IMG/VR virus record: IMGVR_UViG_3300043464_001377
Source of the DNA: an uncultured virus (IMG/VR IMGVR_UViG_3300043464_001377)
Lineage: Duplodnaviria > Heunggongvirae > Uroviricota > Caudoviricetes
Reading direction: 5' to 3' (one strand)
Length of the DNA: 64,000 nt
Part shown: positions 1-49,496 of the stretch, piece by piece
Layout: every line of letters begins with the position of its first letter
How positions within the stretch are numbered: position 1 is the stretch's first letter
Notes under the pieces: model-generated
The model's database searches: none
The model's input: the letters and a program-made list of their open reading frames with translations, nothing else
Told to the model about the DNA's origin: nothing
Translations under genes and position numbers: made by a program

Positions 1-13
1 CACTATCGGCCTG

Positions 14-127
14 ATCGCAAAGGCAGGCGGCGAGCCGTTGACCGCAGACGCCGCTAGGACGGCTGGCGAGGTGGCGGCATTCCACGCCGTGCTGGCGTAC
101 ATCAACAACGGTTGGAAGGCAGAGTAG
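14..127 (+). repeat. Direct repeat, identical to 1154-1267 (3' end of a duplicated small gene)
   Basis: atcgcaaaggcaggcggc...ggaaggcagagtag matches base for base; both copies are followed by cacAGAAC. Confidence 0.97.
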
Positions 128-131
128 CCAC

Positions 132-217
132 AGAACGTGTACGATCAACAGCCGCGAACTAAGGAGGCGGCGACTATGAGCGATACGAATGAGCGGTCTG
201 TTGCATCGGCTGGTTCT
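132..217 (-). repeat. attC-like hairpin site 1
   Basis: AGAAC-gtgta-CGAT-CAACAG-CCGC...GCGG-[T]-CTGTTG-[C]-ATCG-gctg-GTTCT: R boxes, unpaired spacer, two extrahelical bases. Confidence 0.8.
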
Positions 218-502
218 CAGCCGGTGGCGTGGAGCGTCGATTGGGATGGAGAGATAGATTGCGATTTCGTCTATCGCGACAGAGAGAGCGCGATGGATGT
301 CATTGCCGACAACGACGAAACCAGCGGCGTCGTTGTCCCGCTCTACCGCCAGCCGCAGCCCACGCTCACCGACGAGGAGCGGCACGCAATCGCGGTCGTC
401 CGCAACTGCGCCATGACGCGAGCCGAGCGGTTTCTGACGCAGAGCGATGCGGAGAGGGAAGCGACACTTGTGCTGTGGAGATTGCGGGAACGGCTTGGCT
501 AG
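176..502 (+). CDS. Hypothetical cassette protein (QPVAW...VVPLYRQPQPTLTDEER type)
   Basis: AAGGAGG RBS and ATG176 lie inside the loop of hairpin 1. Confidence 0.75.
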   Translation: MSDTNERSVASAGSQPVAWSVDWDGEIDCDFVYRDRESAMDVIADNDETSGVVVPLYRQPQPTLTDEERHAIAVVRNCAMTRAERFLTQSDAEREATLVLWRLRERLG

Positions 503-583
503 CGCTGGCGATCAGCGGCATCGAACACAGGAGCAACCATGACGAACGAGGCGAATGAGATGTCCGCTGCATCGCGTGGTTCT
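499..583 (-). repeat. attC-like hairpin site 2 (degenerate left R box)
   Basis: GCGAT-CAGCGG-CATC...GATG-[T]-CCGCTG-[C]-ATCGC-gtg-GTTCT. Confidence 0.75.
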
Positions 584-913
584 CGCGGCGACACGCTTTC
601 GGTCCTTCGCACGCTGATCGACGGCGTGCGTGGCATGGGGCTGGGCGACCCGGACAGTGGCGACCGAGTTGAGGCGAGCGATGTGGTGCGGTGGGCTGTC
701 GATGAGATTGAGCAGCAGCGAGGGAGCCTCCAGTGGCTACACGGCCTCTTGACAGAGGCAGAGGAGAGGCTTGCAAGACTGCGGCTCACCGACGAGGAGC
801 GGGCGGCGGTGGATGACGGGATTGATTCTGTGTCGGGCGATGAATCGCTGTCGCCATCACAGCGGAGGGAGATCGCCACCTCGCTACGCGGGTTGTTGCG
901 GCGACTAGGCTGA
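539..913 (+). CDS. Hypothetical cassette protein
   Basis: AGGAG RBS and ATG inside hairpin 2; C-terminus LTDEER...LLRRLG resembles that of 176-502. Confidence 0.75.
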   Translation: MTNEANEMSAASRGSRGDTLSVLRTLIDGVRGMGLGDPDSGDRVEASDVVRWAVDEIEQQRGSLQWLHGLLTEAEERLARLRLTDEERAAVDDGIDSVSGDESLSPSQRREIATSLRGLLRRLG

Positions 914-957
914 GAACGCCAGCGATCAGCGGCTCGTCCGCAGCATCGCGTGGTTCT
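913..957 (-). repeat. attC-like hairpin site 3 (45 bp, minimal)
   Basis: AGAAC-gcca-GCGAT-CAGCGG-ctcg-[T]-CCGCAG-[C]-ATCGC-gtg-GTTCT. Confidence 0.8.
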
Positions 958-991
958 GTGGTTTGTTGGATTACACAACAGGAGGATCGAA

Positions 992-1267
992 ATGCTCTAC
1001 AACGCAATCAAGCGGCGAGACAACCTCATCTCGGGGCTGCGAGACTCGCAGGAGTTTTTTTGCAACGCCATGAACAGGCAGCATGGCAGCCTCATCGACT
1101 GGATGCGGTGGCAGATTGAGAAGCGAGAGACGCGGCTAGACACCATAGGACTCATCGCAAAGGCAGGCGGCGAGCCGTTGACCGCAGACGCCGCTAGGAC
1201 GGCTGGCGAGGTGGCGGCATTCCACGCCGTGCTGGCGTACATCAACAACGGTTGGAAGGCAGAGTAG
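992..1267 (+). CDS. Hypothetical cassette protein (second copy ends at window position 127)
   Basis: AGGAGG RBS then ATG992; 3' part duplicated at 14-127. Confidence 0.8.
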   Translation: MLYNAIKRRDNLISGLRDSQEFFCNAMNRQHGSLIDWMRWQIEKRETRLDTIGLIAKAGGEPLTADAARTAGEVAAFHAVLAYINNGWKAE

Positions 1268-1271
1268 TCAC

Positions 1272-1357
1272 AGAACACGCAGGATCAGGAGCGGCGAGAC
1301 ATGAACACCGACAACACGCAGGACGCGGCCGAGCCGTCTCTTGCATCCGCTGGTTCT
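1272..1357 (-). repeat. attC-like hairpin site 4
   Basis: AGAAC-acgca-GGAT-CAGGAG-CGGC...GCCG-[T]-CTCTTG-[C]-ATCC-gctg-GTTCT; compensatory changes relative to site 1. Confidence 0.8.
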
Positions 1358-1642
1358 CACTTCGACCGCGCCGCCGAAGACCATGCCATGTCTCGCGGCT
1401 GGATGCCGCACAGACCGGAAACGTGGCCGTACCGATACGCGACACTGAAACGCGACGCTTTGATGCTGCACCTGCGAGACAGCAAGGAAGTAGAGATTCC
1501 CATTCCTGCCGGTAGCACGGTCAAACTCGTCATGGTGTCTAGGTTTGGGGACGTTGGCGTCACGGAAGACCTGACGGCAGAGAAGGGGTACGGCGTGCGA
1601 CTGCCACTATGTGACCTGTGCGACTGGCGAGACGAGCCGTAA
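1301..1642 (+). CDS. Hypothetical cassette protein
   Basis: ATG inside hairpin 4; ORF ends just before site 5. Confidence 0.75.
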   Translation: MNTDNTQDAAEPSLASAGSHFDRAAEDHAMSRGWMPHRPETWPYRYATLKRDALMLHLRDSKEVEIPIPAGSTVKLVMVSRFGDVGVTEDLTAEKGYGVRLPLCDLCDWRDEP

Positions 1643-1647
1643 GCGTG

Positions 1648-1692
1648 AGAACACCAGCGATCAGCGGCTCGTCCGCTGCATCGCGTGGTTCT
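1648..1692 (-). repeat. attC-like hairpin site 5 (45 bp)
   Basis: AGAAC-acca-GCGAT-CAGCGG-ctcg-[T]-CCGCTG-[C]-ATCGC-gtg-GTTCT. Confidence 0.8.
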
Positions 1693-1713
1693 GTGGGCGT
1701 AAAGGAGACGACG

Positions 1714-2121
1714 ATGGACGACATTATCAGTCGCATCACGAACTACTTAGCCAACGGCGGACTTTTCAACCCGGAATACATGGAGCATGAAAAAGTGCGA
1801 CGATTGCTTATGGACTGCCGCGACGAAGTGATTGCTGCCAGCACGCTAACAGGCATGATGCTTGAAGGCACTGGGCAACGGGCTGCCGAAAGTGTGGCAG
1901 AGCGTGTCATCAACGGGCAGACAGTTGGAGTGTGGATTCCCGTGAGCGAGCGACTGCCGGAAAAAAACGAACCTGTATGCGTTGTCTGTGGAGGGAAGGT
2001 AACTGTTGGCACATACAGCCCGATGATGGATGACTGGTGGGCGTTGGTGTTGCCTGTTACCGGCATTCAGCCAACCGATAGCGTCACCCACTGGTTGCCG
2101 CTGCCGGGGTCGCCGACATGA
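1714..2121 (+). CDS. Hypothetical protein with C-terminal DUF551-like domain
   Basis: WIPVSERLPE...VTHWLPLP motif; AAGGAG RBS. Confidence 0.75.
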   Translation: MDDIISRITNYLANGGLFNPEYMEHEKVRRLLMDCRDEVIAASTLTGMMLEGTGQRAAESVAERVINGQTVGVWIPVSERLPEKNEPVCVVCGGKVTVGTYSPMMDDWWALVLPVTGIQPTDSVTHWLPLPGSPT

Positions 2122-2675
2122 CTTTCTGGTTCACTTCCGACACGCACTTCAACCACGCGAACATCATCGAACACTCGCGGCGGCCATTCGCCAGCCTGGA
2201 CGAGATGACCGAGACGATGGTGGCTCGCTGGAACGAGCGAGTCTTGCCTGGAGACATGGTCTTCCATCTTGGCGACTTCGCCTTATCGTGGGGCAAGAAG
2301 CACCACGAAACCATCGACGCCATCCTGGCTCGCCTGAACGGGCAGAAGTGGCTGATCTGCGGCAACCATGACAGGGACGAGGTCAAAAAGAATCCGCGAT
2401 GGGCGATGGTCAAAGACTACCATGAGATCAAGGTCGACCTCGGCGGCGCCCATAAGCAGCGGATCGTCATGTTCCACTACGCCATGCGAGTCTGGAACCA
2501 GATGCACAGAGGGTCGTGGCTTCTGCACGGGCACAGCCACGGAAACCTGTCGGACATCGGAGGCAAGTCTCTGGACGTTGGCGTCGACTGTCACGGGTTT
2601 CGGCCGGTGAGCGTGGAAGAAGTGGCAGAGTTCATGCGTAACAGAAACCCAGTGGCCTGTGACCATCATGCGTAG
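2118..2675 (+). CDS. Calcineurin-like metallophosphoesterase
   Basis: FTSDTHFNH, HLGDF, GNHD and HGHSH motifs. Confidence 0.92.
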   Translation: MTFWFTSDTHFNHANIIEHSRRPFASLDEMTETMVARWNERVLPGDMVFHLGDFALSWGKKHHETIDAILARLNGQKWLICGNHDRDEVKKNPRWAMVKDYHEIKVDLGGAHKQRIVMFHYAMRVWNQMHRGSWLLHGHSHGNLSDIGGKSLDVGVDCHGFRPVSVEEVAEFMRNRNPVACDHHA

Positions 2676-2955
2676 GAAATCAAAACACAAGGCCTACACA
2701 CTCGTGGAGGCCCTTGTAGTGCTGGCGATCATCGCCACGCTCATTGCCCTGCTGCTGCCAGCAATCCAGACGGCACGGGGACATGTGGCAGGAAAGGCGG
2801 CGGGGCCAAGCCAGCCGCCTGGGACTTGGCTGCTCACGACCGTCAAGCATGACGATCACTGGTGGGTCATGGCGGCGGCTTCGGCGACAGTCCCGGCGGC
2901 GTTCTGCCACCACCCTGACTGCCCGTGCCAGCACAGAAAGCCGGAGGCAGAGTGA
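2668..2955 (+). CDS. Small protein with prepilin-type N-terminal cleavage/methylation motif (DUF1559-like N-terminus)
   Basis: KAYTLVEALVVLAIIATLIALLLPAIQTAR; C-terminal HHPDCPC. Confidence 0.8.
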   Translation: MRRKSKHKAYTLVEALVVLAIIATLIALLLPAIQTARGHVAGKAAGPSQPPGTWLLTTVKHDDHWWVMAAASATVPAAFCHHPDCPCQHRKPEAE

Positions 2956-3157
2956 AGGCCACGCTCACGTTTACGCTGCCTGAAGAGCAAGGCGAGTACG
3001 ACTCCGGAAGTCCGCAAACTGTGCGAGGAAGTGCGGGCGATGATCCCCGGCGAAGTACTGGACGTTTGAGATGAGCCTCGACAAGTCAATCGCGCAAAAA
3101 AACTTGACCCTCGACGGCGAAGATCGCCATGCTCTGCTCTCAACTTCCGAGGCTTGT

Positions 3158-3751
3158 ATGGACACACGCATCACCTTTCCTCGATACTCCGGCCTGCGGT
3201 GCTTGATGATGCCCTACATCCAGGGCATGCCGGGCTCGGTGCCAGCCGAGTACGACGCCTACGCCGACGTCCTGCGGGACGTCTACGTGAAGCGTGGCGA
3301 CATCGGCTACCTGACCGTCGACGAGTCGGTGGTGATGGCTGGCAGGCCGCATCGGGGCGATCGAGCCAAGCATGGCCGGGCAATTCACACTGAGGCTGGC
3401 AAGCGGCCAGGAGGGTGCTGGGGCTGGGGCTCGTCGGACCTCGTTAGGCTCGACCGAGACGTGCAGATTCTCCTGGCAAACAGCCTGGATGGGTCGTGTG
3501 CTGTCTGGGACGCGACTCACGAGGACGCGAGCCTCGATGGAGACATCGGGCACGTCGCGGACCTGTATCCCTACGAGACTGCGACCCTCATGCGGGCCGG
3601 GGATGTCCACCAGGTCGGGATTCTCACGCCTCACGAGAGCCTGCCAGTCTGGCGAGACGTGCGTCGCCAGTTTCTACGAATCGTGGGCGGCGGAGTCCAT
3701 GGCCGCGAGGAGTACTTCACAGTCAATCCGATCATGCCAGGAGTGTGCTGA
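3158..3751 (+). CDS. Putative 2OG-Fe(II) oxygenase/cupin-fold protein
   Basis: IHTE...TPHESLP...RQFLRI resembles HxE...H...R spacing; fold is inferred. Confidence 0.45.
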   Translation: MDTRITFPRYSGLRCLMMPYIQGMPGSVPAEYDAYADVLRDVYVKRGDIGYLTVDESVVMAGRPHRGDRAKHGRAIHTEAGKRPGGCWGWGSSDLVRLDRDVQILLANSLDGSCAVWDATHEDASLDGDIGHVADLYPYETATLMRAGDVHQVGILTPHESLPVWRDVRRQFLRIVGGGVHGREEYFTVNPIMPGVC

Positions 3752-4041
3752 TGGACATCGTTGAGCGACTGCGTCGAGAGATTGCCCGGGAGCCGCAACT
3801 AGGCGACACGCTGGAAGAAGCCGCGAGTGAGATCGAGAAACTCCGATCCTTGACGCGATTTCAGGATGGCGTGATTCGCAGCGGCGATGTCGCAACCTTG
3901 GCAACCGACGAGAGAATCGCTGTTCAGCATGCTGCCGACACATTCGGCGCATTCGGCTTCGACAACGACGACGAAACTTGTGCCCGCATTCAGATGACAC
4001 TGATTTCCCTCATCGAAAGGCTCTCCAAGCATGACGCTTGA
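3751..4041 (+). CDS. Hypothetical protein
   Basis: MDIVERLR...EEAASEIEKLR, a common phage N-terminus; coupled to neighbours. Confidence 0.65.
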   Translation: MDIVERLRREIAREPQLGDTLEEAASEIEKLRSLTRFQDGVIRSGDVATLATDERIAVQHAADTFGAFGFDNDDETCARIQMTLISLIERLSKHDA

Positions 4042-4336
4042 CGAACTGATCCTCGCTGTCGAAGACTGGGCTGCGGCTCGGAAGATCGTGCCGAACAGCA
4101 CGCCCCAGGCTCAACTAATGAAGACCATGAGCGAACTCGGCGAACTCGCCGACGCGACCCTCAAGAGCGACCTCGAAGGCAAGATCGACGGCCTTGGGGA
4201 CGTGCTGGTGACGCTGATCATCTACGCCCAACTCTCTGGCTTGACTCTTCGCCACAGCCTGGAGTCGGCGTACCGGACCATCAAAGATCGTCGCGGGCAT
4301 CTCACGCCCGAGGGCGTCTTCGTGAAGGAGGAGTGA
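4031..4336 (+). CDS. MazG-like NTP pyrophosphohydrolase
   Basis: QLMKTMSELGELA...DGLGDVLVTLII...AYRTIKDRRG...GVFVKE. Confidence 0.88.
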   Translation: MTLDELILAVEDWAAARKIVPNSTPQAQLMKTMSELGELADATLKSDLEGKIDGLGDVLVTLIIYAQLSGLTLRHSLESAYRTIKDRRGHLTPEGVFVKEE

Positions 4337-4746
4337 TGGCGAACAACAGGCTCTATCTTCGCGACACCGAGACCGGCGAGGAGATTCTGCTCGCCAAGGG
4401 ATACACCGGGTCGCACTGCTGGACCCTGCGGGACGGCACCGATCCACTCGCGGCGTGGCTCGAAGAGCATGACTTCGGCGCGGCAAATGGCGGCTACACG
4501 AGGCTCGTCGTCTACGACGAGAATCATCCTCCTGCTGGGACCGAGATCGCCGACAGGCTTCGAGAAAAGGGCGGGCTTTGCCTGGAGGCCGCATCGACGA
4601 TTGAGCATCTGCTCGCGATCAACGAGTCACTTCGTCGCGAGATTCGCTTGCAACGCAAAGAGATCGCTGGGCTGCGGGACGAGAGGCGAATGCTGCTCGA
4701 CGCCGAGCGGCCGAATTATGACGCGGATGGTGGGTGGCTTACTTAG
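4336..4746 (+). CDS. Hypothetical protein with coiled-coil C-terminus
   Basis: ORF coupled to the MazG gene, GGAGGAG RBS. Confidence 0.6.
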   Translation: MANNRLYLRDTETGEEILLAKGYTGSHCWTLRDGTDPLAAWLEEHDFGAANGGYTRLVVYDENHPPAGTEIADRLREKGGLCLEAASTIEHLLAINESLRREIRLQRKEIAGLRDERRMLLDAERPNYDADGGWLT

Positions 4747-4802
4747 GGTGCCGCTCTGGTCGGGCGTAAAATCGCGCTCGATTCGCACCAAGGAGGCAGG
4801 CT

Positions 4803-5156
4803 GTGGCGACGATCTCTTCACTTCCCGAGACGGTTGATCTTGAGTTCGTGATTGGCGACGAGTTCACCTTCGAGGTAAATCTAGGGCTGAATGTAACTGG
4901 ATACACTCTTCATGCAACCCTCTTCAGGGCCACGGCCTTTTCGGCCAACGGAGACATGATTGGCTGGGAGATGCTGGGCACCTTCACCCAATCGCCTATT
5001 GACCTTTCACAGGGCAGGCTCAGTCTGACTCTGAACGAGAGTCAGACTGGCTACATGAGCCCAAATGAAAACTACAGATGGAGCCTGCGATGGATCGCCC
5101 CAGGAACCATCACCAAGACTGTCCGCGCTGGAAAAGTCACTCCCAGGATGTTCTGA
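4803..5156 (+). CDS. Hypothetical beta-rich protein (possibly virion-associated)
   Basis: AAGGAGG RBS, GTG start; LEFVIGDEFTFEV...GKVT. Confidence 0.6.
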   Translation: MATISSLPETVDLEFVIGDEFTFEVNLGLNVTGYTLHATLFRATAFSANGDMIGWEMLGTFTQSPIDLSQGRLSLTLNESQTGYMSPNENYRWSLRWIAPGTITKTVRAGKVTPRMF

Positions 5157-5160
5157 TCCA

Positions 5161-5457
5161 GTGCCAGAGCGATTCCCTTTCTTCAAGCCCACGCGGGGCC
5201 GAAAGAGGCCCACGCGGGTCAGCGCCTTCCGGCGAGGCTATGGCGGCAAAGCCTGGGAGAGCCTCCGGCTGAAGGTGCTGCTCAGGGACAACTGGCAGTG
5301 CCGGGCCTGCCGCAGGGTCTGCTCTGATCCCAAAGAGGCCCACTGCGATCACATTGTGCCCAAGAGGCTGGGCGGGCCTGACTCCATGGAGAATCTCCAG
5401 TGCCTGTGTGCCCGCTGCAATGCCAAGAAGGTACATGAGGATGCCAGGCTTCAATAG
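5161..5457 (+). CDS. HNH endonuclease (terminase-associated, HK97 gp74-like)
   Basis: RRGYG..WESLRLKVLLRDNWQCRAC...DHIVPK..GG.D..NLQCLCARCN; lies upstream of terS. Confidence 0.92.
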   Translation: MPERFPFFKPTRGRKRPTRVSAFRRGYGGKAWESLRLKVLLRDNWQCRACRRVCSDPKEAHCDHIVPKRLGGPDSMENLQCLCARCNAKKVHEDARLQ

Positions 5458-6042
5458 AGGCCCCTGGCTTGCTCTCTGAGGGCCACTTGTCTGGATAGGC
5501 TATCCAGGGGCCAGAAATAAAATCAGCCCTCATATCTCAAATGAGAGCCTCCTGAGAGATTGGTACTTGGGGACTTCATTTTTCCAGTCCCCATATAGGG
5601 AAATCCTAGGAGTCTCAATTCAAAAGTAGAAGTCTTCAAGTACCAAAGAGTCAAAAACGCGAGTCAGGCTCGAATGATAATAGGGTTTTGTCTCCTATAT
5701 AGGGAAAGACTTGAACAGGAAAAGAGAAGTCATTGGGTGCCAATGAAGAGAGAGGCGGGGCTTGGCCTGGGCTCATGGGGGCAAGCAGCCCCAGGCCCTG
5801 GATGATTCAAGGAGTTCTCTGGGCGATTTTTACTTTACTGGCTTGGGCTTTTGTGCGAGGCTTGATCTTGCCCACTCCGGGGGAGTGTCTCGGCCGAAAT
5901 TGAAATTGAGGCCGAGACCCAGCCTGCGCCCTTCCGTGAGCGGCTGCAAAACTTTTCGGGGGGGCTTTTTCCCGAGAAAAACGCATATTTTGGTCGGCCA
6001 CCCTGGAAGACCGAGGAGCCGCCGAAAAAGTAGTCGGCACCC
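5458..6042. other. Non-coding, AT-richer, CpG-poor region; probable cos/packaging-initiation site
   Basis: Position between HNH and terS; palindromes TGGATAGgCTATCCA (5492-5506), GGGGACT..AGTCCCC (5569-5592), CCTATATAGG (5694-5703). Confidence 0.55.
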
Positions 6043-6507
6043 ATGGGACGTCCCCCAACTCCCACCAATCTGAAGGTCATCCGGGGAAATCCGGGCCAGC
6101 GACCGATCAACGCCGACGAGCCGAAGCCGCCTCCGGCGGACACGAATCCTCCGGCTCGTCTTGGCGGCGCCGCCCTCGACATGTGGAACGAGATCGTTCC
6201 GCTCCTGTCTGGCATGGGCGTGTTCACCCAGGCCGACCGGAGCGTCATCGAGCGGTACTGCCTCATGCACGAGCAGTGGCTCCACGTCGTGAAGCACGTT
6301 CAAGAACACGGCATGACCCAGTTGACTCAGACGGGGTACAGCCAACTGACAGCGGAGGGATCGTTGTTCAAAAGCCTGCCGGGGGAACTGATGCGGATCG
6401 AGCAACAGTTCGGCATGACTGCCGCCGCCCGGTCGACCATGAAGGTATCGAATGCCGCTGCCCAAGAAGACCCGCTGGAAGCGTATATCAAAAGCCGAGG
6501 CGCTTAG
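6043..6507 (+). CDS. terS: Terminase small subunit (P27 family)
   Basis: MGRPPTPTNLKVIRGNPGQRPIN...FGMTAAARS. Confidence 0.93.
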   Translation: MGRPPTPTNLKVIRGNPGQRPINADEPKPPPADTNPPARLGGAALDMWNEIVPLLSGMGVFTQADRSVIERYCLMHEQWLHVVKHVQEHGMTQLTQTGYSQLTAEGSLFKSLPGELMRIEQQFGMTAAARSTMKVSNAAAQEDPLEAYIKSRGA

Positions 6508-8119
6508 TCTCGGCTACGACTACTACTTCGACGAGGCCAAGGCGGCTCACGCCGTCGGCTTCTTCGAGAACTTTCTGATCCACTCCAAGGGTCAGTTCGC
6601 CGGAAAGCCGTTCACCCTCCTGCCCTGGCAGAAAGACGAGGTGATCGAGGAACTCTTCGGCTGGATGCGGGTCGACAACGACCAGCGTAGGTTCCGGGTC
6701 GGCTACATCGAGGTGCCCAAAAAAAATGGCGCCTTGGCCCCTGTGGCGTGGTAGCCACGGGGGCCAAGGTCGTCACACGGCAAATCGACTCTTCTCTCGG
6801 GCATCTCGCTCTATATGACTGTGGCTGACTCCGAGCCAGCCGCTGAGTGCTTCGGCGCGGCCACGTCCCGCGACCAAGCAGGCATTGTCTACAAGCAGAT
6901 GGCGGAACTTGTCCGCTCCAGCCCCTACCTGTCCAAGCGGCTGGAGATCGTCGACTCCCGCAAAACGATCGCCTGCGTTCCGACGAACTCGTTCTGGCGG
7001 GTCATTTCCAGCGACAGCCACCGAGCGGAAGGCCTCAACATCCACTCGCTCTGCTACGACGAGTTGCACTCAGCCAAGGACAGAAAACTCTGGGACGCGA
7101 TCCGCTACGGCGGCATTTCCCGTAGCCAAAGCCTCGTCCTGGCGATTACCACGGCTGGCTACGACCGATCGTCGATCTGCTACGAGCAGCACGAGCATGC
7201 CCTCAAGGTCATGCAAGACCCAAGTCTCGACCCCCAGTACTTCGCCTACATCGCGGCGGCCACCGCTGAAGATGACTACCGAGACCCGGAAGTCTGGCGG
7301 GCTGCGAATCCGTCGTTCGGCGTGACCATGGACGAGGAGAGTTTCAAGGCGGACGTCCGCGAGGCCGAGCAGTCGCCCTCCCGGCTCTCGTCATTCTTGC
7401 GTTATCGGCTCAACGTCTGGGTGGCGGGCACCGAGAAGTTCGTGAATCTGACTCAGTGGGAGCAGTGCAAGGGCCACTCCGGCCTGCTCGATTCGTCGCG
7501 GGTCTGGTATGGCGGGCTCGATCTTGCTCAGACCTGGGACGTCAACGCTTTCGTGGCGGTCTCGAAGGCCCACGACGACGTGTTCGACGTGATCTGCAAG
7601 TTCTGGATTCCAGCCGACAACGCCGACACTCGCCGCGAAGAGGTGCCGTACATCCAGTGGGCTAAAGACCCGAAGACCGGCCTGACGCTGACTCCCGGCG
7701 ACACATGCGACTACGAGTTCATCAAGCGGGACATCCTGAAGTTCGCCAAGGAGCGGACGGTCAGGCGGATCGCCACCGACCCATACAACTCGCATTACCT
7801 CGTCCAACAACTTCAGGCCGAAGGATTGGACGTGATAGGCTTCTCCCAGAACTTTTCGGCCATGAACGCGCCGACCCGCGCGCTCGACGGGCTGATCTCG
7901 CAGGGACGCCTGCGGACGAATGACAATCCGATCCTGAACTGGATGGCCGGAAATTGCACGATAAAGACCAACGCCGATGGCTACATCAAGATCGCCAAGC
8001 CAGCGGCCATGAGTCCAGCCCGAGTGGACGGCATGATCGCGCTCGTCATGGCTCTCGCACTTGCCAGCGATGCCGAGGCTGCTCCGAAGATGGCCGATCC
8101 GGAGATCATCTTGCTGTGA
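6452..8119 (+). CDS. terL: Terminase large subunit (Terminase_1 type), interrupted at 6731-6781 by a 51-nt insert with in-frame TAG
   Basis: LLPWQ, EVPKKNG|KST Walker A, YDELH Walker B, ITTAG, GGLDLA, RVDGMIA; both halves are in the same frame. Confidence 0.93.
6731..6781 (+). other. Hairpin insert in terL Walker A; candidate translational bypass element
   Basis: 17-bp stem 6731-6747/6754-6770 with TAG at 6752-6754, flanked by GGC 6728-6730 and GGC 6779-6781. Confidence 0.7.
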
Positions 8120-8168
8120 ACTTGTTCCATCGCGGGTCGATGACGATCAATGAGTGCAAGGGGGCACA

Positions 8169-11100
8169 GTGAGCGACTCCGAAAACAGAGCCTTGTCCGA
8201 CATTGTCTGGACACCCGCACGCGGGCTGTCCGAGCCCGAGATTCGTGGCATCTCGTGGAACAATTTCCTGCTGTCTGAAGAGACCTACGGCGGCCGGTGG
8301 CGGACTGAGGCCGAAGTTCGCGTCACGCCTGAGACAGCCCTCCAGTCGACCGTGGTGCTGGCGTGCTGCCGCATCTTGGCCGAGACGATCAGTTCCCTTC
8401 CCCTACACGTCTACCGGCGAGGGGAAGACGGCAGCAAAGACATCGCCCGCGATATTCCGCTGTATCGAGTCTTGTCGTTCGCTCCCAACTCCTGGCAGAC
8501 CAAGTTCGAGTTCTTCGAGCAGATGGTGATGAACCTCTGCCTGTGGGGGAACTCCTACACGCAGATCAAGAGCGGCCGGTACGGCGCTGTCTCGGAGTTG
8601 CTCAACCTCCACCCGTCTCGCATGGACGTGGAGCGGCTCGAAAACGGCCGCCTCCGCTACATGTACACGAATCCGGAGAACGGAAGACTAGAGCCGTACA
8701 CGCAAGACCAGATCATGCACGTCCGGTGGACCGCCGAGCCCGACGGCATCAAGGGCATGGTCCCAGTCGAAGTCGCACGCGAGTCGATCGCCCTCGCCAG
8801 GGCGTGCGAGATTCACGCCGCCAAGTTCTGGGCGAACTCAGCCCGGCCCGGCATGGTGCTACAGACCGACGGCTCGCTCTCGCCCGAGGCCGCCGAGCGG
8901 CTGCGAGATAATTGGGAGCGACTCCATCGCGGCGTCGACCGGGCGTACAAGACCGCGATCCTCACGAACGGACTCAAAGTCGAGCCCGTCGGCTTCACGG
9001 CCGAGCAGTCGCAGTTCGAGTCGACACGCCGCTTCCAGTCCGAGGAGATCGCGAGGGTCTATCGGTTGCCCCTCCGGCTCGTGCAGGGCCAGCCTGGCGG
9101 CAACCCGGAGATCGAGGGCCAGGACTTCGTCACCTACACGCTGGTGCCATGGCTGCGACGCATCGAGAGCGCGATCTCTCGGTCGCTGATCTACAACGAC
9201 GACCTGTTCGTCGCCGAGTTCGACGTGCGTGGACTGATGCGAGGGGACTCCAACTCTCGCGCGGGCTACTACTCCACGATGACGAACCTCGGGATTTTTT
9301 CGATCAACGACTGCCGTCGACTTGAGAACCTTCCGCCGCTCGAAAACGGCGACAAGCACTTCGTCGGCATGAACATGCAGACGATCGACGAGGCAGTCAA
9401 GCCGAAGCCCGACCCGGCAATGATGGGCGGCCCAGGAGCCCCGCCGCCGCCAGCCCAAGGCGGCGTCCCGAGCCTGCCTGAAGTCAAGACGGGCAAGGCT
9501 CCGAACCCGGCCGAGAAGGGTGAGCAGTCGAAGCCGAAAGAAGAAGGCATGCTTGTTTCTTACGGCGAAGGCAAGACCGGCCGCGTCAAGCACGTCATGG
9601 AGCAGGGCACGCTCGACCTCAAGTCTGGCGAGAAGATCGAAGTCCAGCCAGGCGAGCCCGTGGCCCTTGTCGTCGACGAAGAGACCGGCGAGGAAGCGGG
9701 CATCAAGGTCTCGCAACTCAAGCCGATCCAAGAGAAGCGGGCCCTCTCGCAGCAGAATCAGGCCCTGTACGACGCCCAGGAAGAGATCGTCAAGAAGAGT
9801 GGACGCTGGCCCCAGCAAGGCCCAAGCGGCGCCCACTACATGGAGAAGAACCCTTTCGCGTCTCGCGGCATCGCCTGCCGGAACTGCATCTACTACGAAG
9901 AGGGCGGCTCCTGCGAGATCGTCAAGGGCATCATCTCGCCCAACGCGATCTGCAAACTGTGGATCATTCCCGAAGAAAAACTCAGCATGCCAGAGTCTCG
10001 CGACTGCGGGACGGGCGCTGGCGGCTTCAAGGACGGCAACAAGTGCGCTGGCAGCAGCGACGACGGCGAGCCCGTTCGCGGTTTCCGTCGCGGCGAGGGC
10101 GATAAGAAGCAGTCTCGCGCTGCCAAGAAACTCTACCAGATGGGCACGTCTGAGCGACGCATCAAGGACTTGGTGCGACAACTCGGCGGCAAGCCTGGGC
10201 GATCGTCAGCCAAAGTCACCGGCGACAAGATCGGCATCAGAGTCCGCGACTCATCTGGCAAGGACATCTTCTACGTGGAGATGGGCTACAACGGCGCGGG
10301 CATTGTCCCCATCGGCAAGACGCTCTCGCGAGAGCAGGCGTCACAGATCGAGTCGCTCGCGAAGCCCGCGTTCCCCGACAAGATTAGCGATCGTCTCTAC
10401 AATCGCGGCAAACGGTATCCAGTCTCTGTTCATCGCGACGACGCCGTCCTCAAGACTGGCGGACGGATCGCCAAGAAGGGCAAGCAGCAGCGGGCGTACT
10501 GCCCCACGGGCGAAGGCGGCGGGATCGACAACTCGTGCGGCAGCACGACGGAGACCGCCAAGGCCAGGGACAATCGCCTCTCCAGGGAGGCCAATGCCAT
10601 CAAGGGCCCGATCGCCGCAAACGACGAGCGGCTCGCCGCCAAGGTGGACTTCAAGCCCGTCGCAGAGTCGTCCAAGAACTCTGACAGCATCCCGATGGCA
10701 AGCGACGACGCGATTCGCCTTGCATTGTCTGGAAACGTAAAGATCGACGGCCAGGAGATTCCCAAGCGAGAACTCGTCGGATCGCACCGCGAACTTGCTG
10801 AAGGAACTCCCGTCGCCCTGCGAATCGACATTCCAGCCTACGAGAAAAAGGACACGTACGCCGTCACGGTCCACAGCAAGGCGAAGTCCAAGAACGGCGT
10901 CGGCAAGGTCATTGGATTCGACTCGATCGTGACATTGTCTGGAGACGTGACGTTCGTCTCGCACGAGCCGACGGCCACAGCGATCGCAATGGGCCGCTCA
11001 AAGACTCCGCTTGCGACGGTCGTCGGCAAGTTCAAGCCGAGCCGCGAGGTTCCAGAGGACATCAACGACTGGACGGCGGTCGGCTACAACCCGAAGAAAG

Positions 11101-12299
11101 CCGCGTACTTCTACGACAAGAGGACCGGGCGTGAAGTCACCGGCGGCACCGACTCTGTCAGCATTGGCAACACGGTCTTCGTGCGAACGCCGAAGTACGG
11201 CGAGCGGTACGCCAGCGAGCAGTACAGGTCTCTGGATGACAACTCGTGGGGGCTGGAGCAGCGGGCGGAAGACTGCGGGAGAGTCGACGGCGGACTGTTT
11301 GGGCCTGGAAACAATTGCGCAGCCGACGGCGAAGGCGGCTCCAAGTCTGACCGGATCGCAGAAATGGCGATCAAGTCTATGGCCGAGACTGGAGGGTTCT
11401 CAATTCATCCAGTGTCAGAGTCAAGTCCGACGTCTGGTTACATGGTCTCGGTTGCGCCAGAGTCAGAGACCATTGTTCCATCAGCCCAAAAAGTCACAGG
11501 GCCGGTGATCGACAAGTTCTTGAAAGAAAACAAGTCTAAGTTCGAGGAGAGGCCTACACTTCACATCGGCGGCTGGATTGATTCCGAATCCAACCAAGTG
11601 TACCTTGACCTGTCGGAGCGATTTGATGACATCGACGACGCCATTGATGCGGCTGAGTCGACCAATCAACTCGCGATCTGGGACTTGAACGAGAAGAAAG
11701 AAATCAGAAAGGGCGACTACAGTGGCAGACGAACCAAAGGCAAAGGCGAAACTCGTGCGGTTCGACTTTCCGACGGGAGCGAAGGCGGAAGAGATCGCGG
11801 CGGCCATAGAGGCGGCTCGCGAGAAGATCATGGCCGAGAAGGCCGCCAAGCAGCAGACGCCCTCGTCGAAGAACTGAAGCAGTCTGGCGAGGCTGATCTC
11901 CCGAGCATCGTATTCAGGCCAACTACCGAGTCTCGCTCGGTAGTTGAGTACGACCTCGACACGGACGCGATCTACGTGTCCGACTCTCTGAATGACGAGG
12001 CCGTTGCCTCGTTCCGGCTCGCAGCAGCGAGGGGCTGGCTCTCGCAGCCCAATCCGCTCCTGCACGAACTGGCTCATCGGCATCATGCCGTGGCAGACGC
12101 CGAGTCGTACGACGCATCGGCGTCGCTCTCGTTTGACGCCGAGAACCGCGACGTCGCCAAGAGCGTTTCTCGCTACGCCGCCACGAGCCACCGCGAGTTC
12201 GTTGCTGAAGTCCTGGCTGGCCTGTGGGCCGGGAAAGAGTACGGCGACGACGTGATGCGGCTTCTCTCTTCGGTAACGAACGGAAAGTTTTCGACGTGA
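8169..12299 (+). CDS. HK97-family portal protein with ~950-aa multidomain C-terminal extension
   Basis: Portal motifs (VLACCRILAETISSLPL, PNSWQT, EEIARVYRLP, YTLVPWLRRIE, SINDCRRLENLPP), then Tudor-like, HiPIP-like CRNC..C..C, three Cys motifs and zincin HELAH; GTG start after GGGG. Confidence 0.9.
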   Translation: MSDSENRALSDIVWTPARGLSEPEIRGISWNNFLLSEETYGGRWRTEAEVRVTPETALQSTVVLACCRILAETISSLPLHVYRRGEDGSKDIARDIPLYRVLSFAPNSWQTKFEFFEQMVMNLCLWGNSYTQIKSGRYGAVSELLNLHPSRMDVERLENGRLRYMYTNPENGRLEPYTQDQIMHVRWTAEPDGIKGMVPVEVARESIALARACEIHAAKFWANSARPGMVLQTDGSLSPEAAERLRDNWERLHRGVDRAYKTAILTNGLKVEPVGFTAEQSQFESTRRFQSEEIARVYRLPLRLVQGQPGGNPEIEGQDFVTYTLVPWLRRIESAISRSLIYNDDLFVAEFDVRGLMRGDSNSRAGYYSTMTNLGIFSINDCRRLENLPPLENGDKHFVGMNMQTIDEAVKPKPDPAMMGGPGAPPPPAQGGVPSLPEVKTGKAPNPAEKGEQSKPKEEGMLVSYGEGKTGRVKHVMEQGTLDLKSGEKIEVQPGEPVALVVDEETGEEAGIKVSQLKPIQEKRALSQQNQALYDAQEEIVKKSGRWPQQGPSGAHYMEKNPFASRGIACRNCIYYEEGGSCEIVKGIISPNAICKLWIIPEEKLSMPESRDCGTGAGGFKDGNKCAGSSDDGEPVRGFRRGEGDKKQSRAAKKLYQMGTSERRIKDLVRQLGGKPGRSSAKVTGDKIGIRVRDSSGKDIFYVEMGYNGAGIVPIGKTLSREQASQIESLAKPAFPDKISDRLYNRGKRYPVSVHRDDAVLKTGGRIAKKGKQQRAYCPTGEGGGIDNSCGSTTETAKARDNRLSREANAIKGPIAANDERLAAKVDFKPVAESSKNSDSIPMASDDAIRLALSGNVKIDGQEIPKRELVGSHRELAEGTPVALRIDIPAYEKKDTYAVTVHSKAKSKNGVGKVIGFDSIVTLSGDVTFVSHEPTATAIAMGRSKTPLATVVGKFKPSREVPEDINDWTAVGYNPKKAAYFYDKRTGREVTGGTDSVSIGNTVFVRTPKYGERYASEQYRSLDDNSWGLEQRAEDCGRVDGGLFGPGNNCAADGEGGSKSDRIAEMAIKSMAETGGFSIHPVSESSPTSGYMVSVAPESETIVPSAQKVTGPVIDKFLKENKSKFEERPTLHIGGWIDSESNQVYLDLSERFDDIDDAIDAAESTNQLAIWDLNEKKEIRKGDYSGRRTKGKGETRAVRLSDGSEGGRDRGGHRGGSREDHGREGRQAADALVEELKQSGEADLPSIVFRPTTESRSVVEYDLDTDAIYVSDSLNDEAVASFRLAAARGWLSQPNPLLHELAHRHHAVADAESYDASASLSFDAENRDVAKSVSRYAATSHREFVAEVLAGLWAGKEYGDDVMRLLSSVTNGKFST

Positions 12300-15200
12300 T
12301 TTTTCTGGAAGAAGAGTACCGGGCATTCTGCCCCACCGGCGACGGCGGCGGCGTCAAGAACGACTGCTCGTCGCAGGACGGCAGCGGAGCAAGGACCGAC
12401 AACTCGTGGAAGCGGGAGCAGGGACCAGTTCGCATTGCCGGTGATGACCTGAAGCAGTCTCCTCCGGCCAAGTCGCTCGCTGGCGTGAAGGCAGTCGTCA
12501 TCATGGACGGCGAACTGGTCAACAAGTCGCTCCGCGAGGTCGGCGTCACGCTTGATCAAGCGGCCAGAGCATGCGCGGCCCTCGACCCGGAGGCCCAGGT
12601 CACGATATCCCACGGCGGGCTGCTTGAGATCATCGAGTTCATGGGAAGCGATGACCCGGAGCGGTACATCGAAGACACCGTGACGTTCACGAGCGAGATG
12701 CCCGTGGCTGGCATCGAGGGCGCTGCTCGGACTGCCGCATCGCTGACGAGGACCGAAGAAGACGGACTCGTCATGTCCTACACGATGCTGATGATCAGCG
12801 ACGAGGCCAAGCAGAAAGCCAGCGTCGCCGTCGCTCGTCACATGATGAAGGGCGCGATCGCAAGCATTACGCAGGCTGAGAAGATCGGCGTCGACAGGGT
12901 CGAGATGCTGGCCGCCGGTGATAGCGGCAAGAACTCTGACTTCAAGGGCTATCGCATCTGGCCGAGGCTCGGCTTCAACGGCGTGATTCCACGCAGGCAT
13001 GTCACGCCCACATGGTCGCTCGCAACTGGGTTCTTCAACTCCTACGGCAGCGGCATCCCAGACAAGATTCTCTCGCCTCGCGCTCGCAAAGAGAAGGCCG
13101 CAGGAGCCTTGACGATCCAGTCTCTGTACGAGACCAAGGAGGGCCAGGAGTGGTGGGAAGAGAACGGCGGCGAGATGGAGATGTCGCTCGCCGTCGGCAG
13201 CAACAGCGATCCTGGCTGGAAGCGATTCAAGTCCCTGCGTGACAGGTTCTCGAAGCGAGGCCTGGACTTGACTGACGCCTTCTTTGACGCCGAGGCTAGA
13301 GCCCTGCTTGATGGCGACTGGGCTGAGTTGCGTGCCTACTGCCCAACAGGCGAAGGCGGCGGCATCGACAATACGTGCAGCCCAGGCGGCCAGTCTTCTG
13401 CGGCTCCCGCCAAGGCGGACGACTCGTGGAAGGAGTCGAAGTCGTCTCTATCTATCTCTGGCGATGGGCTCAAAGACAAGCCGCCATTCACAGGTGCAGA
13501 CAAAGCAGGAAGCGTCGCTATTCCAAACCCGCAGGGACTTGCGGATGGAATGTCTGACGCTGGCATCAAGTCGCTCGACGAACTCGCTGCCATGAGCGGC
13601 GCGACAATTCGCGGGAGTAAGGTGACGTTCTTTGGAGCGTCAGGCGGCAACGACGGCACCGGCGCCTTCATCACCATTGATAACGAAATCCCGCTTGCCC
13701 GCGATGGCAGTGATTCGGAAGGCCAATTTGACGTCAACGTCGCTGTGTATCGGGACGACGGAGAGTATGTGCTTGGCTTCAACGGCATGTACCCAGACAA
13801 GGCTGCGACTGCCACTCGCGAGAGGGTCGCAAAAGCCACTAGCCTTATGCAGCAGGCTGTTATCGAGGCGATCGCCAGCGTCGAAAAGACAGGAATCTCG
13901 AAGGTCAAGATGAGTGCCGCTGGCGGCCCCGAGTATGAACTCAAGGGATATCGCCTGTGGCCGCAGTTTGGATTCGATGCCATGCTCGACAAGAGCAGCA
14001 AGCATTCGCTCTCCCAGGCCCCGCAGGCAGTGGTCGAGAAGTTGATGCGGACTGCGAGGCCCGATCTTTTTGCGACGCGGATCACGCCATCGCACGCTGC
14101 CCTTGTCGCGGCCCTGCCTCACAGCGACATCACCGTGCAGCACCTCGTCTCATTCCACGAAGGCGACGTCTGGTGGAACGAGAACGGCACAACTCTGAGC
14201 ATGACTCTCGACCTGTCGGACAAGAAGAGCCTCGGCTACGCCAAGTTCCAGAAACAAACGTCGCGGCTCAAGAGGCTCAAGGAGCGAAATCAGTCGCGGG
14301 CGTTCTTCGAGTGGCTCGAAGAAGAGGCTGAGTTCAGGGCCGGGGCTGACTGCGGTCGGGTCGATGGAGGCCGGTTTGGAAGCGGCAACGACTGCGCCAG
14401 CGATGGCTCGTCGTGGGAGGACGAAGAGAGCGTCGACATGGACGCGGAAGCCATTTCGTCGTCGCCGCCGTTCAAGGGCGCCGAAGTCCTCGATTCGTTC
14501 TCCGTGAACGATGTCCAGTCTCTGAAGGACACGCTCTCTGACTTCGGGAGAGTCAAAGGCGTCAAGGACGTTGTCGCAATCAGCGGCGGCGTTCGTCAGG
14601 GCGGATCAGTCGGAATCGACGCCTTCGGCGACTCCATTATCGTCAACTCCGCGATTCCAGTTGCGCCGGACGGCTCTGGTCGTCTTGGCAACATCAAGAA
14701 CATGGTGTCGCTGATGAAGGACGACGACGGGTATCTCGTCGTCAACTACGACAGCATGTCGCTGGATTCTGCCGCCATGTCATCCATCAGCGGAGACTTG
14801 GAAGATGACTCGGCCGACAGGCGTCGAATCGTCAGTCTCGTGTTGGAGCGAATGACGGAGTCGCTCTCTGTCGCCGAGGAGTCTGGAGCAATCCGGGCCG
14901 ACACGATCGCCGCCGGAACGTCGACCAGTGCCCTGCAAGGATATCGGCTGTGGCCGCAGTTTGGTTTCGATGGCGAACTCGATAGGGCCGACATCGACGC
15001 CATCAAGGAGGACATCAAACTCACGCCGTACCAGAAGCGTAGGGCACTCACAGGCCAGATGACCGTTCAGGACTTGATCGCCACGCCCGAAGGCGATCGC
15101 TGGTGGAACGAGAACGGCACGACGATTGAACTGACGCTCGACTTCACCGACCAGACCAATGCTGGCTACAAGCGTTTCGAGCGAATGAAGAAGATGCTTG

Positions 15201-23739: not shown

Positions 23740-25227
23740 ATGGAATCGTCCGCCAAGATCAAGTCTCTCCTCGACGAACTCGCCGCTGTGCTGGCTGAGA
23801 TGGGCGCCCTTCAGGACGAGGTGTCCGACGAGCGTGCCGCAATGACCCCGCCCGTCGACGGAGAAGAGGACGAGGACGAGGACGACGTCGAGGAGAACGG
23901 CTACAAGCCCGATGGCGTCGAGGACGCCGAAGGCGCGATGCCGGAGGACGAAGAGAAGGAGAAGAAACTCCGCTGCCTCTGCGAGCGTGCTGAGAAACTC
24001 CGCGAGAAGGTCAAGTTCTACGAGGGCGTCGCCGCGAAGGAGTTGGAACTCCGTGCGGTCCTCGACAAGTCTACGCCCGCCACGGACTCGGCGGTCGCTT
24101 ACCCCAAGGCCAAGGAGGGCCGGTCTGTGTCGATCTATCACAATCTGCCGGGTGCCGGTCGTCTCAAGAACTTCAGGGGCCAGAACGCCGAAGAGCGTGC
24201 GTACCGCGCCGGTCAGTTCTACAAGGCCGCGCTGCTGAAGGATCAGAACGCCGCTCGTTGGTGTGCTGACCACGGCGTGATCGACAGCCGTGCCCTGAGC
24301 GAGGGCGTCAATTCGGCTGGCGGTCTGTTTACGGCAGAGGAAGTGCTGAATGAGGTGATCGTCCTGACTGAGTCGTACGGTGCATACCCCGCGAACGCCC
24401 GCAACCTCCAGATGAAGTCGGACACCCTCGTGATCCCCCGGCGGACTGGCGGCCTGAAGGCTTACTTTGTCGGGGAAAACGCCAGCATTCCGGATTCCGA
24501 CGCCAGTTGGGATCGGGTGCAACTTGTTTGCCGCAAGGTCGCGGTCTCGAACCGCATGAGTTCGGAGATTTTGGAAGACTCCGTTCTGAACTTGGCCGAT
24601 TACATCACGGGCGAAATCGCAAGGTCGCTGGCTGAGTTGATCGACACCGTCGGCTTCGTTGGAAATGGCAGCGGGGATCATGGCGGTATGATCGGCGTCG
24701 CCACCAAGATCAACGACGGAACCCACACGGGCGGCGTCGTGACGGCTGCGAACGGCAACACCGGGGCCCTGACTCTTGACGTGGACGATCTGATCGCCAC
24801 CGCTGGTCGGCTTCCGCTGTACGCTCGCGGCAACGCGAAGTGGTACGTGAATCCCGCCGTGTTTGCTGCCAGCGTGCAGCGTCTCGGTCTGGTCAACAAC
24901 GTGGGCCTCGCTGGTGGCAACACCTCCGCGAATCTCGCGGCCCCCACCGAGATGCGTCTGCTCGGCTACCCGGTGGTCTTTGTCCACACGCTTTCGAGCG
25001 CGGTGGGTGCCGACCCCGGCGTCGTGAAGTTCCTCTTCGGTGATCTCTCGATGAGTTCGTACTACGCGACTCGTCGTGGCCTGACTCTGAAGACCTCGAC
25101 CGACCGCTATGCGGAACTCGACCAGACGTTGATCGTCGCGACGAGCCGCTTCGACTGCGTCACCGCTGACTGCGGCGACAGCACGAAGGCTGGTCCGATC
25201 GTGGCCCTCAAGACTGCTGCTTCGTGA
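23740..25227 (+). CDS. Major capsid protein, HK97 family, with acidic/coiled-coil delta domain
   Basis: SRALSEGVNSAGG, SSEILEDS, LLGYPV, LFGDLS, RFD. Confidence 0.93.
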   Translation: MESSAKIKSLLDELAAVLAEMGALQDEVSDERAAMTPPVDGEEDEDEDDVEENGYKPDGVEDAEGAMPEDEEKEKKLRCLCERAEKLREKVKFYEGVAAKELELRAVLDKSTPATDSAVAYPKAKEGRSVSIYHNLPGAGRLKNFRGQNAEERAYRAGQFYKAALLKDQNAARWCADHGVIDSRALSEGVNSAGGLFTAEEVLNEVIVLTESYGAYPANARNLQMKSDTLVIPRRTGGLKAYFVGENASIPDSDASWDRVQLVCRKVAVSNRMSSEILEDSVLNLADYITGEIARSLAELIDTVGFVGNGSGDHGGMIGVATKINDGTHTGGVVTAANGNTGALTLDVDDLIATAGRLPLYARGNAKWYVNPAVFAASVQRLGLVNNVGLAGGNTSANLAAPTEMRLLGYPVVFVHTLSSAVGADPGVVKFLFGDLSMSSYYATRRGLTLKTSTDRYAELDQTLIVATSRFDCVTADCGDSTKAGPIVALKTAAS

Positions 25228-41855: not shown

Positions 41856-42050
41856 ATGTCTGAATGGTTTTCCTGCGGGGATAAATTACCGCAACTCGGC
41901 GACGACGTGCTTGTTTGGAACGGCAGCACTGTGACGATCGCAAGGCTGATGGGGGACGAATGCGGCCAGTACTGGGAGTCAGACGACGACGTCGCCGAAC
42001 TGATTCCGCCGACGCACTGGCACGCCATCCCCGAGCCGCCGCTTGGCTAG
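41856..42050 (+). CDS. DUF551-like small protein
   Basis: MSEWFSCGDKLP...PTHWHAIPEPP. Confidence 0.75.
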   Translation: MSEWFSCGDKLPQLGDDVLVWNGSTVTIARLMGDECGQYWESDDDVAELIPPTHWHAIPEPPLG

Positions 42051-49478: not shown

Positions 49479-49496
49479 AACGCAACGGAGCCTCCC

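Follow-up and report, generated by a model that had tools for sequence, protein, structure and literature searches.

The window examined here, a 64,000-nucleotide stretch of DNA from an uncultured virus (Duplodnaviria; Heunggongvirae; Uroviricota; Caudoviricetes; IMG/VR record IMGVR_UViG_3300043464_001377), opens with a run of small genes separated by imperfect hairpins. Five such hairpins lie on the + strand between positions 132 and 1692, and each begins 0 to 6 nt past the stop codon of the preceding small open reading frame (ORF). We conclude, with a probability of roughly 80%, that these hairpins are attC sites of the type used by integrons, and that together they make up, in a temperate tailed phage, a cluster of attC sites lacking an integron integrase (CALIN) within the region of early accessory genes. 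An earlier note, made from the letters of this DNA without database searches, had described five imperfect inverted repeats between small ORFs, a shared plan of boxes and stems with a degenerate left box in the second repeat, and two repeats of only 45 bp. Inspection of the sequence bears out each of these points, with all five repeats found at the positions given there and on the + strand.

Three of the sites have a long form, namely site 1 (132–217; 86 nt), site 2 (499–583; 85 nt), and site 4 (1272–1357; 86 nt). Site 3 (913–957) and site 5 (1648–1692), the final site of the array, have a short form of 45 nt as counted from AGAAC to GTTCT; they are 96% identical to each other and both carry the loop CTCGT. 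Read along the + strand, the left half of the common plan consists of AGAAC, a spacer of five nucleotides, (C/G)GAT, CA, a 4-bp stem, and an upper stem with its loop. The right half continues with a bulged T, four base pairs, TG, a bulged C, ATC(G/C), a spacer of four nucleotides, and GTTCT. The AGAAC/GTTCT boxes are intact in four of the five sites (AGAAC at 132–136 and GTTCT at 213–217 in site 1), the exception being site 2, where the left box reads CTAGC (499–503). The L box of site 4 is GGAT/ATCC. The bulged bases are T197 and C204 in site 1, T563 and C570 in site 2, T1337 and C1344 in site 4, and T1672 and C1679 in site 5. In site 3 the bulge is C944, and T937 is the final base of the loop.

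The intervals between these sites are occupied by small genes on the + strand. Cassette genes 1 (176–502; 108 aa), 2 (539–913; 124 aa), and 4 (1301–1642; 113 aa) start within the loops of sites 1, 2, and 4, each of which holds a Shine–Dalgarno-like run and the ATG (176, 539, and 1301, respectively) of the next ORF. Translation through the right arms gives SVASAGS for site 1, SAASRGS for site 2, and SLASAGS for site 4, which confirms the earlier claim that the ribosome-binding site (RBS) and ATG lie in the loop of three sites and that the arm encodes the N terminus. For cassette gene 3 (992–1267; 91 aa), the RBS and ATG are located 3′ of the short site 3. The TGA stop codon of cassette gene 2 (911–913) adjoins the left box of site 3, such that A913 is common to the stop codon and AGAAC. 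The window starts with the 3′ part of a truncated cassette gene (2–127, + strand), a paralogue of cassette gene 3 whose full copy is present in the viral contig L011. Past the last site is a gene with a DUF551 domain (1714–2121, + strand), which has no site behind it. Searches of Pfam and PHROGs with cassette genes 1 to 4 returned no family match and no function.

Across the 64 kb, matches to half of the site pattern with zero or one mismatch are confined to the five sites, and those with two mismatches occur at chance level. A covariance model built from relatives of these sites, applied to both strands of the window at E ≤ 10, identifies exactly five sites, all on the + strand: 129–220 (85 bits), 496–586 (70.9 bits), 910–960 (52.8 bits), 1269–1360 (85.9 bits), and 1645–1695 (58.4 bits). 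The array extends past the window, as the upstream sequence that the earlier note had proposed to inspect reveals four more sites. Specifically, L011 is 100% identical to window positions 1–9817 and adds 1293 nt upstream that contain these four. Therefore, the window begins in the middle of the array, and the phage has at least nine sites. A 157-nt direct repeat (1–157 versus 1141–1297; 92% identity) loses its identity directly after AGAAC, and the cassette gene at 992–1267 occurs twice in the array with a different hairpin class behind each copy.

The same sites recur in other viruses. A 34-nt core of the short form has exact matches in 41 viral-contig stretches, and the covariance model locates 146 sites in 39 viral loci beyond the window (three of the viral loci represent a single contig and entered the count once). 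The largest arrays hold 16 sites (L005) and 14 sites (L024), and within each of the 39 loci all hits share one strand. The bulged C occurs in every one of 108 distinct sites and the bulged T in 106, with 6 bp between the two bulges, and the AAC…GTT pair is retained in 72 of 73 aligned members. The paired positions vary: the outer L-box pair is CG in 66 of the distinct sites and GC in 33, the CA/TG pair is CG in 98, AT in 8, and GC in 1, and two further stem pairs are CG in 84 or GC in 23 and GC in 78 or AT in 27. In the 73-sequence alignment, 95.8% of cells are paired versus 85.6 ± 0.5% in shuffled alignments, and compensatory cells number 122 versus 37 ± 4.4; none of 500 shuffles equaled either value. 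When the partner column was slid as a control, 28–44% of cells remained paired. Some members even have the entire L box replaced (for example by CATT…AATG or CCCT…AGGG) while both bulges remain unmoved. Structure, rather than sequence, is conserved in this family, and the covarying stems and two positionally fixed unpaired bases perceived earlier in five sites hold across both the 73-member alignment and the 108 distinct sites.

Other parts of the hairpin are more flexible. Loops range from 3–5 nt up to 28–39 nt, and the spacers of 5 (sometimes 4) and 4 nt are variable in sequence and partly pairable in predicted folds. The + strand has 22 G·T versus 7 A·C pairs, and DNA folding predicts it to be more stable than the − strand by a mean of 0.4 kcal/mol over the 108 sites (Wilcoxon p ~ 1e-4), and the more stable of the two in 65 of them. 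One site class, observed in L010 (reverse-complement coordinate 3397) and L030 (9616–9702), has CATT..AATG and GA/TC with the same two bulges and precedes gene bodies that follow other classes elsewhere.

The interlocking of sites and genes is likewise a property of the family. An ATG is present in the loop of 49 of the 62 long sites, with a frame that extends more than 90 nt beyond the site, and in 47 of these 49 the right arm is read in the identical frame. At 114 of 132 sites, the site strand bears an ORF of 40 codons or more whose end falls between −12 and +2 nt relative to the left box, often with its stop codon inside the box (TGAGAAC in 45, TAG..CAGAAC in 30, and ATAAC in 12). The intervals between sites are at least 90% open in 83 of 95 cases on the site strand and in 48 of 95 on the opposite strand. 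Since the opposite strand is also open in GC-rich DNA, the length of open frames is unable to assign the coding strand, and this assignment is based instead on the loop ATGs and the stop positions. By eye, a leader-bearing long site in L005 (5963–6054) was seen to precede a cassette equipped with an RBS and ATG of its own, with the loop ATG opening a frame of ~24 codons that ends at the real start of the cassette.

These features can be compared with those of integron attC sites as given in the relevant part of Nivina et al. (2016; PMC5027507). There, the recombinogenic form of attC is the folded bottom strand, AAC is the sole conserved stretch, and the R box is cleaved between A and C. The extrahelical bases are found in the arm that faces AAC, the first, usually G, at position 16 and a conserved T at 23 or 24, and the 6-bp stem between the bulges is required. 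The central spacer measures 5–6 nt per arm, the length of the whole is 57–141 bp, and the terminal structure is variable. The phage sites share the AAC/GTT R boxes, the L box, and the variable loop, as well as the conservation of structure over sequence, and may share the spacer. If a 7-nt R box is counted from the 3′ end of site 1, there follow a 4-nt spacer, 4 bp, C16, 6 bp, and T23, and all five sites fit this scheme, in which the numbering from the outer end of the 7-nt R box is our own inference. The bulges at 16 and 23, separated by a 6-bp stem, are thus on the arm opposite AAC, as in attC. By analogy, the crossover in site 1 would be placed between A135 and C136.

Comparison of related contigs suggests that the units defined by these sites are mobile. 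Clustering by nucleotide sequence divides the intersite segments into more than 100 groups, whose arrangement differs between contigs. The loci L014 and L016 share a 430-nt unit composed of a hairpin core and a gene, as well as a two-unit block of ~790 nt, each 100% identical and each in a different location. In both shared segments, the identity runs from AGAAC to just past the next AGAAC, with unrelated cores beyond, and the resolution of these junctions is limited by the shared 5 nt. Because identity is bounded by left AGAAC boxes, the hairpin moves together with its downstream gene, and a junction in the left AAC box is what is expected if the + strand recombines. These permutation events are recent, and their breakpoints in the AAC box are the kind of gene turnover at GTT/AAC in related phages that the earlier note had proposed to look for.

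Among 12 segment pairs with at least 90% identity, the upstream core is kept in 8 and the downstream core is different in 9; in all four of the pairs that are 100% identical, the core is retained with its downstream gene. Of 34 ends of high-identity matches, 19 lie within 400 nt of a site. Nine of 11 left ends are at the A of AGAAC or one base earlier and the other two are 7 nt past the C of AAC, while the eight right ends are distributed between the C of AAC (2), the next conserved core (4), and positions between sites (2). The numbers are small, and these positions agree with the attC reading.

A further feature of integron cassettes, mutually complementary ends, is also present. The 3 nt after GTTCT exactly complement the 3 nt before the next AGAAC in 61 of 96 pairs of consecutive sites, counted after removal of duplicate loci, versus 12.3 ± 3.1 in shuffles with a maximum of 25 in 10,000. 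The complementary ends comprise fifteen different triplet pairs, and the same 3-nt complementarity within a single site is found in 18 of 132 cases. Such complementary gene-segment ends would be the signature of former circles with a fully paired R box. The phage units also resemble integron cassettes in having one small gene per unit and breakpoints in the AAC box.

Members of the family also occur in bacteria, where they are found beside genes for integron integrases (IntI), as in L044 and L053. A 32-nt core is present exactly in three species-representative genomes. The chromosomal contig L044, which contains outer-membrane efflux, HlyD, RecR, and radical-SAM lipoyl-synthase-like genes, encodes an integron integrase (ORF 6118–7206; 457 bits versus a cutoff of 265). 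Behind it comes an array that contains MazE/MazF cassettes and, on the − strand, six family sites. Two sites beside mazF have CTAAC/GTTAG boxes and the canonical orientation, with mazEF on the opposite strand. Four phage-type sites are located at 9284–10416. One L044 site carries the exact short core, and another (9700–9791) is of the long form, with a loop start that opens an intact 128-aa frame on the − strand. The region 9679–10334 is the only part of L044 with nucleotide homology to the phage arrays (80–90%), and at least two cassettes are common to phage arrays and a bacterial chromosomal integron. The first bulge in L044 sites can also be G or A. As an observation on the same array, the stretch 10344–11842 holds a mazE–mazF pair and, behind it, another mazF copy whose Pfam score is the same, and a near-identical attC with CTAAC/GTTAG boxes is present behind each mazF copy. 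The 3′ end of the L044 intI gene faces the array, a layout that we take to be the meaning of the term “inverted.”

In a genome titled Pirellulales, there are two IntI genes above the cutoff, with a family site 1.2 kb upstream of one of them, and a search of 21 genomes around that of L044, the latter among them, gave IntI above the cutoff in 12. Chromosomal attC sets are known for Cyanobacteria and Planctomycetes, as stated in part of Ghaly et al. (2021; PMC8352920). The identification of the hairpins as attC sites, first proposed from the sequence alone, is therefore supported by their geometry, their covariation, the AAC-bounded turnover, and the presence of the same site family beside IntI in L044.

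The earlier note had also claimed that the sites read canonically on the strand opposite the genes, such that the cassettes are reversed. This claim was examined by using the phage-site covariance model, which stands in here for the attC models of IntegronFinder and HattCI, on arrays beside canonical intI genes. In 13 of 14 cases, the match lies upstream of intI and on its coding strand: 8 of 8 matches in 53 IntI-bearing loci of the viral collection (E ≤ 0.01), 4 of 5 in two large chromosomal contigs with IntI (the fifth, with E 0.08, is on the other strand), and 1 of 1 in L053. The matches are weak (22–39 bits) because these arrays belong to other attC families. As the intI coding strand corresponds to the canonical bottom strand, the strand matched by the model is the bottom-strand analogue. 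The + strand of the phage is therefore both the recombining type and the coding strand, and its cassettes are reversed relative to canonical ones, as had been claimed. Unlike integron cassettes, the phage gene is on the recombining, bottom-strand-like strand with the site before the gene, and unlike integron attC sites, the phage loop often carries an RBS, an ATG, and leader codons. In contrast to a complete integron, there is no intI, attI, or Pc (cassette promoter) near the phage array.

Comparison of sequences shows the structure of the sites, their polarity, cassette-wise permutation with AAC breakpoints, the inverted-repeat ends, and the kinship with sites beside bacterial IntI. The enzyme, the chemistry, and any exchange with host integrons belong to a model that we infer from these features. 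In this model, the + strand would fold while single-stranded, and a host-supplied integron integrase would bind the folded strand, with the bulged C and T of the 3′ arm fixing the polarity. Exchange of one strand would then take place in the 5′ AGAAC box, between its A and C, and the joint would be resolved by replication. Given exchange at this point, the mobile unit would consist of that C, the hairpin, the following gene, and the AGAA of the next site. In the long form, the loop carries the ribosome site and start codon, and ~19 codons are read through the right arm.

Several observations weigh against this interpretation. AAC and GTT are paired in the predicted minimum-energy fold of just 54 of the 108 sites. 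The first bulge is C rather than the usual G of attC, and beyond AAC/GTT the R boxes miss the pattern RYYYAAC/GTTRRRY, being mostly (N)(N)AGAAC / GTTCT(N)(N). The spacers of 5 and 4 nt compare with 5–6 nt in attC, and the short form of 45 nt (~49 nt with 7-nt boxes) is under the 57–141 bp given in the part of the attC literature cited above. In four of the 12 homologous segment pairs (93–95% identical), the upstream cores are not the same and the junction falls at N4|GTTCT, which indicates that leader-bearing cores are also re-paired with gene bodies at the second box; such right-box junctions are unexplained by bottom-strand exchange alone. The evidence for mobility is drawn entirely from assembled contigs. 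Finally, a tblastn search with the L044 IntI through the window and 514,664 bases of related viral loci found no homologue, and the enzyme is therefore presumed from other replicons.

One alternative is that a phage recombinase, rather than a host IntI, recombines the sites. The sole tyrosine recombinase of the window is a Xer-like integrase of 288 aa (42047–42913, − strand), and integrase homologues (26–42% identity) are found within 10 kb of arrays in eight related loci, such that a role for the phage integrase is possible. However, the gene in the window is ~40 kb from the array and beside an excisionase-like gene, as for an integrase of lysogeny. The protein scores 33–52 bits on NCBIfam Xer models, far below their cutoffs, gives one weak PDB match that is XerC-like, has no match to the integron-integrase model, and is not similar to bacterial IntI (BLASTP E 6.9). 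Moreover, the same sites adjoin true IntI genes in bacteria. We consequently regard the phage recombinase as an unlikely driver. The earlier note had left the choice between a host IntI in trans and a phage recombinase open and had suggested looking for intI in the phage; no IntI homologue was found in the window or in the 514,664 bases of related loci, the Xer-like integrase of the window is distant from the array, and a host IntI in trans is probably the better reading because the same site family lies beside IntI in bacteria.

Another possibility is that the hairpins are RNA elements of a polycistronic early transcript, active in processing, stabilization, or translation start, and that the repeats provide only incidental homology. 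This would be in keeping with the location of every site on the sense strand, with the frequency of loop ATGs and of a common right-arm frame, with upstream stop codons in or no more than 12 nt from the left box at 114 sites, and with the G·T pairs, which would be G·U in RNA. T4-type phages have promoter/stem-loop “mobile regulatory cassettes,” and T7 has RNase III sites between its early genes. Like the sites described here, those elements are conserved hairpins between small early genes in plastic regions. In contrast, they are RNA or promoter elements that are not known to have attC geometry, conserved bulges, or an integrase link, and here it is the gene-segment ends that are complementary, not the hairpin ends. 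A role as RNA would leave unexplained why complementarity is so much more frequent between the ends of gene segments (61 of 96) than within a site (18 of 132), the attC-like geometry of the bulges, and the sites beside intI, where the neighboring MazEF genes are on the other strand. Furthermore, no site matched an Rfam family in a search of window positions 1–3000 at E ≤ 10, where four weak, chance-level matches fell elsewhere, and the whole window gave no match at Rfam gathering scores. Thus, we consider it improbable that the sites are RNA elements in the first place, and a secondary effect on RNA or translation is possible.

The narrower proposal that the hairpins are terminators, which the earlier note had named as an outcome that would speak against recombination sites, was rejected, as none of the five is terminator-like and none has a T tract. 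The sole terminator-like hairpin with a T run in window positions 1–3000 (1037–1051) is inside cassette gene 3 and away from any site. Promoter-like sites were likewise sought in 1–3000, and none was found.

Least probable, in our view, is that no site-specific enzyme is involved and that RecT-type relaxed homologous or microhomology recombination at intergenic repeats shuffles the genes, as has been proposed for the promoter/stem-loop cassettes of T4-type phages: RecT-family genes are located upstream of arrays in two of four related loci scanned with Pfam (L016 and L036), right arms share ~24 nt across several classes, and the four older swaps have right-box junctions, but in the recent events unrelated cores are joined through a common box of only 5–6 nt, structure and bulges rather than sequence are conserved, and the sites belong to IntI-adjacent arrays.

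With the attC interpretation thus preferred, the array can be placed among known phage elements. Qi et al. (2023; PMC9892861), in the part of their report that concerns phages, describe 17 CALINs, all of two or more predicted sites, from sequenced phages in GenBank, found that five of six tested phage attC sites were recombined by IntI1, and noted divergently oriented attC sites in one phage. The array reported here resembles these in being an intI-less attC cluster inside a phage genome, and the definition of a CALIN as at least two attC sites with no intI nearby describes it well, with five sites in the window and nine in the phage. Its kind is therefore already known. It differs from the CALINs of that report in having 9 to 16 sites per array, in occurring across dozens of viral contigs, and in its recent permutation, as well as in the reversed polarity and loop starts, which are not described in section 3.4 of the report. 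Full-text literature searches found neither reversed cassettes with loop starts nor lineage-wide long phage arrays in the text portions returned. The reversed polarity, the start-in-loop design, and the 45-nt sites are new variants.

The genome that surrounds the array is that of a GC-rich (~61%) tailed phage, in which the array closes the early region directly upstream of the packaging genes. The late genes include those for an HNH protein (5065–5457), small terminase (6043–6507), large terminase (6815–8119), and portal (from 8154), followed by protease, capsid (23740–25227), and head–tail and tail genes. In four related loci scanned with Pfam, one side of the array is flanked by genes for RecT, a sliding clamp, methylases, and a helicase, and the other side by RusA, DUF551, HNH, and terminase genes. 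Comparison of the window with 50,697 GenBank phage records revealed no similar DNA, and its terminase is less than 40% identical to any therein. The terminase is matched solely by small contigs from a single metagenome-assembled genome, at 70–75% identity, and an Atlas look-up with it yielded no taxa of use for naming a host. The window stretch was found as assembled contigs in 24 lake or freshwater sequencing runs. Unitigs from four of these runs are broken at every site, with the joints listed having short sides of 20–36 nt, and come from a mixed population. The phage lineage is uncultured, and its hosts may be Planctomycetota or picocyanobacteria. A small protein encoded at 2659–2955 has a prepilin-type N-terminal methylation motif, which we presume to resemble that of Planctomycetota proteins and which would be a weak hint to the host.

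Two genes near the array have counterparts that are located within arrays elsewhere. A phosphoesterase gene (2118–2675) lies outside the array and has no flanking site, and an 84%-identical homologue in L042 (720–1241) is present as a cassette between two sites. A gene for a MazG-like pyrophosphohydrolase (4031–4336) is 2.3 kb beyond the last site, and its 84%-identical homologue in L024 (7188–7495) is directly behind a site within an array.

Other observations concern more distant parts of the window. The portal domain forms the N-terminal part of a 1381-aa frame (8154–12299), which is followed by a 2406-aa frame (12224–19444) that has no Pfam match. The region 45311–51212, which has a raised GC content (64–67%), encodes a TROVE/VWA (Ro60-like) protein (45311–46639), an AAA_5 ATPase (47207–48556), and three tandem DUF7192 paralogues (48483–51212). 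A search of the window at Rfam gathering scores returned no family, Y-RNA-like or other.

It is tempting to speculate on how such arrays are used. One proposal, which we advance tentatively and at slightly less than even odds, is that a freshwater phage lineage keeps its own pool of reverse-polarity cassettes, which host IntI would swap among co-infecting or resident phages and the chromosomal integron of the host, with the loop serving as a portable start and leader module that could be combined with different gene bodies via the second R box. Under this proposal, cassettes read from the recombining strand would be expressed in the phage and silent in the host integron.

Integrons are regarded as bacterial devices, and here an uncultured phage lineage organizes its small-gene region as cassettes bounded by attC sites, as many as 16 to an array. 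Mosaicism of small genes between the replication and packaging genes of phages is usually ascribed to homologous or illegitimate recombination. If host IntI drives the process, phage accessory genes, for which host takeover or counter-defence is a likely candidate role, would be swapped by a defined and testable site-specific route. In that case, sedentary integrons may store phage genes in silent orientation, and the minimum size of attC and the allowed identity of its bulges would need revision. In addition, the start-in-loop design would exemplify a naturally occurring attC site within coding sequence. Together, these findings suggest that phages and bacterial chromosomes exchange small genes via the same machinery.

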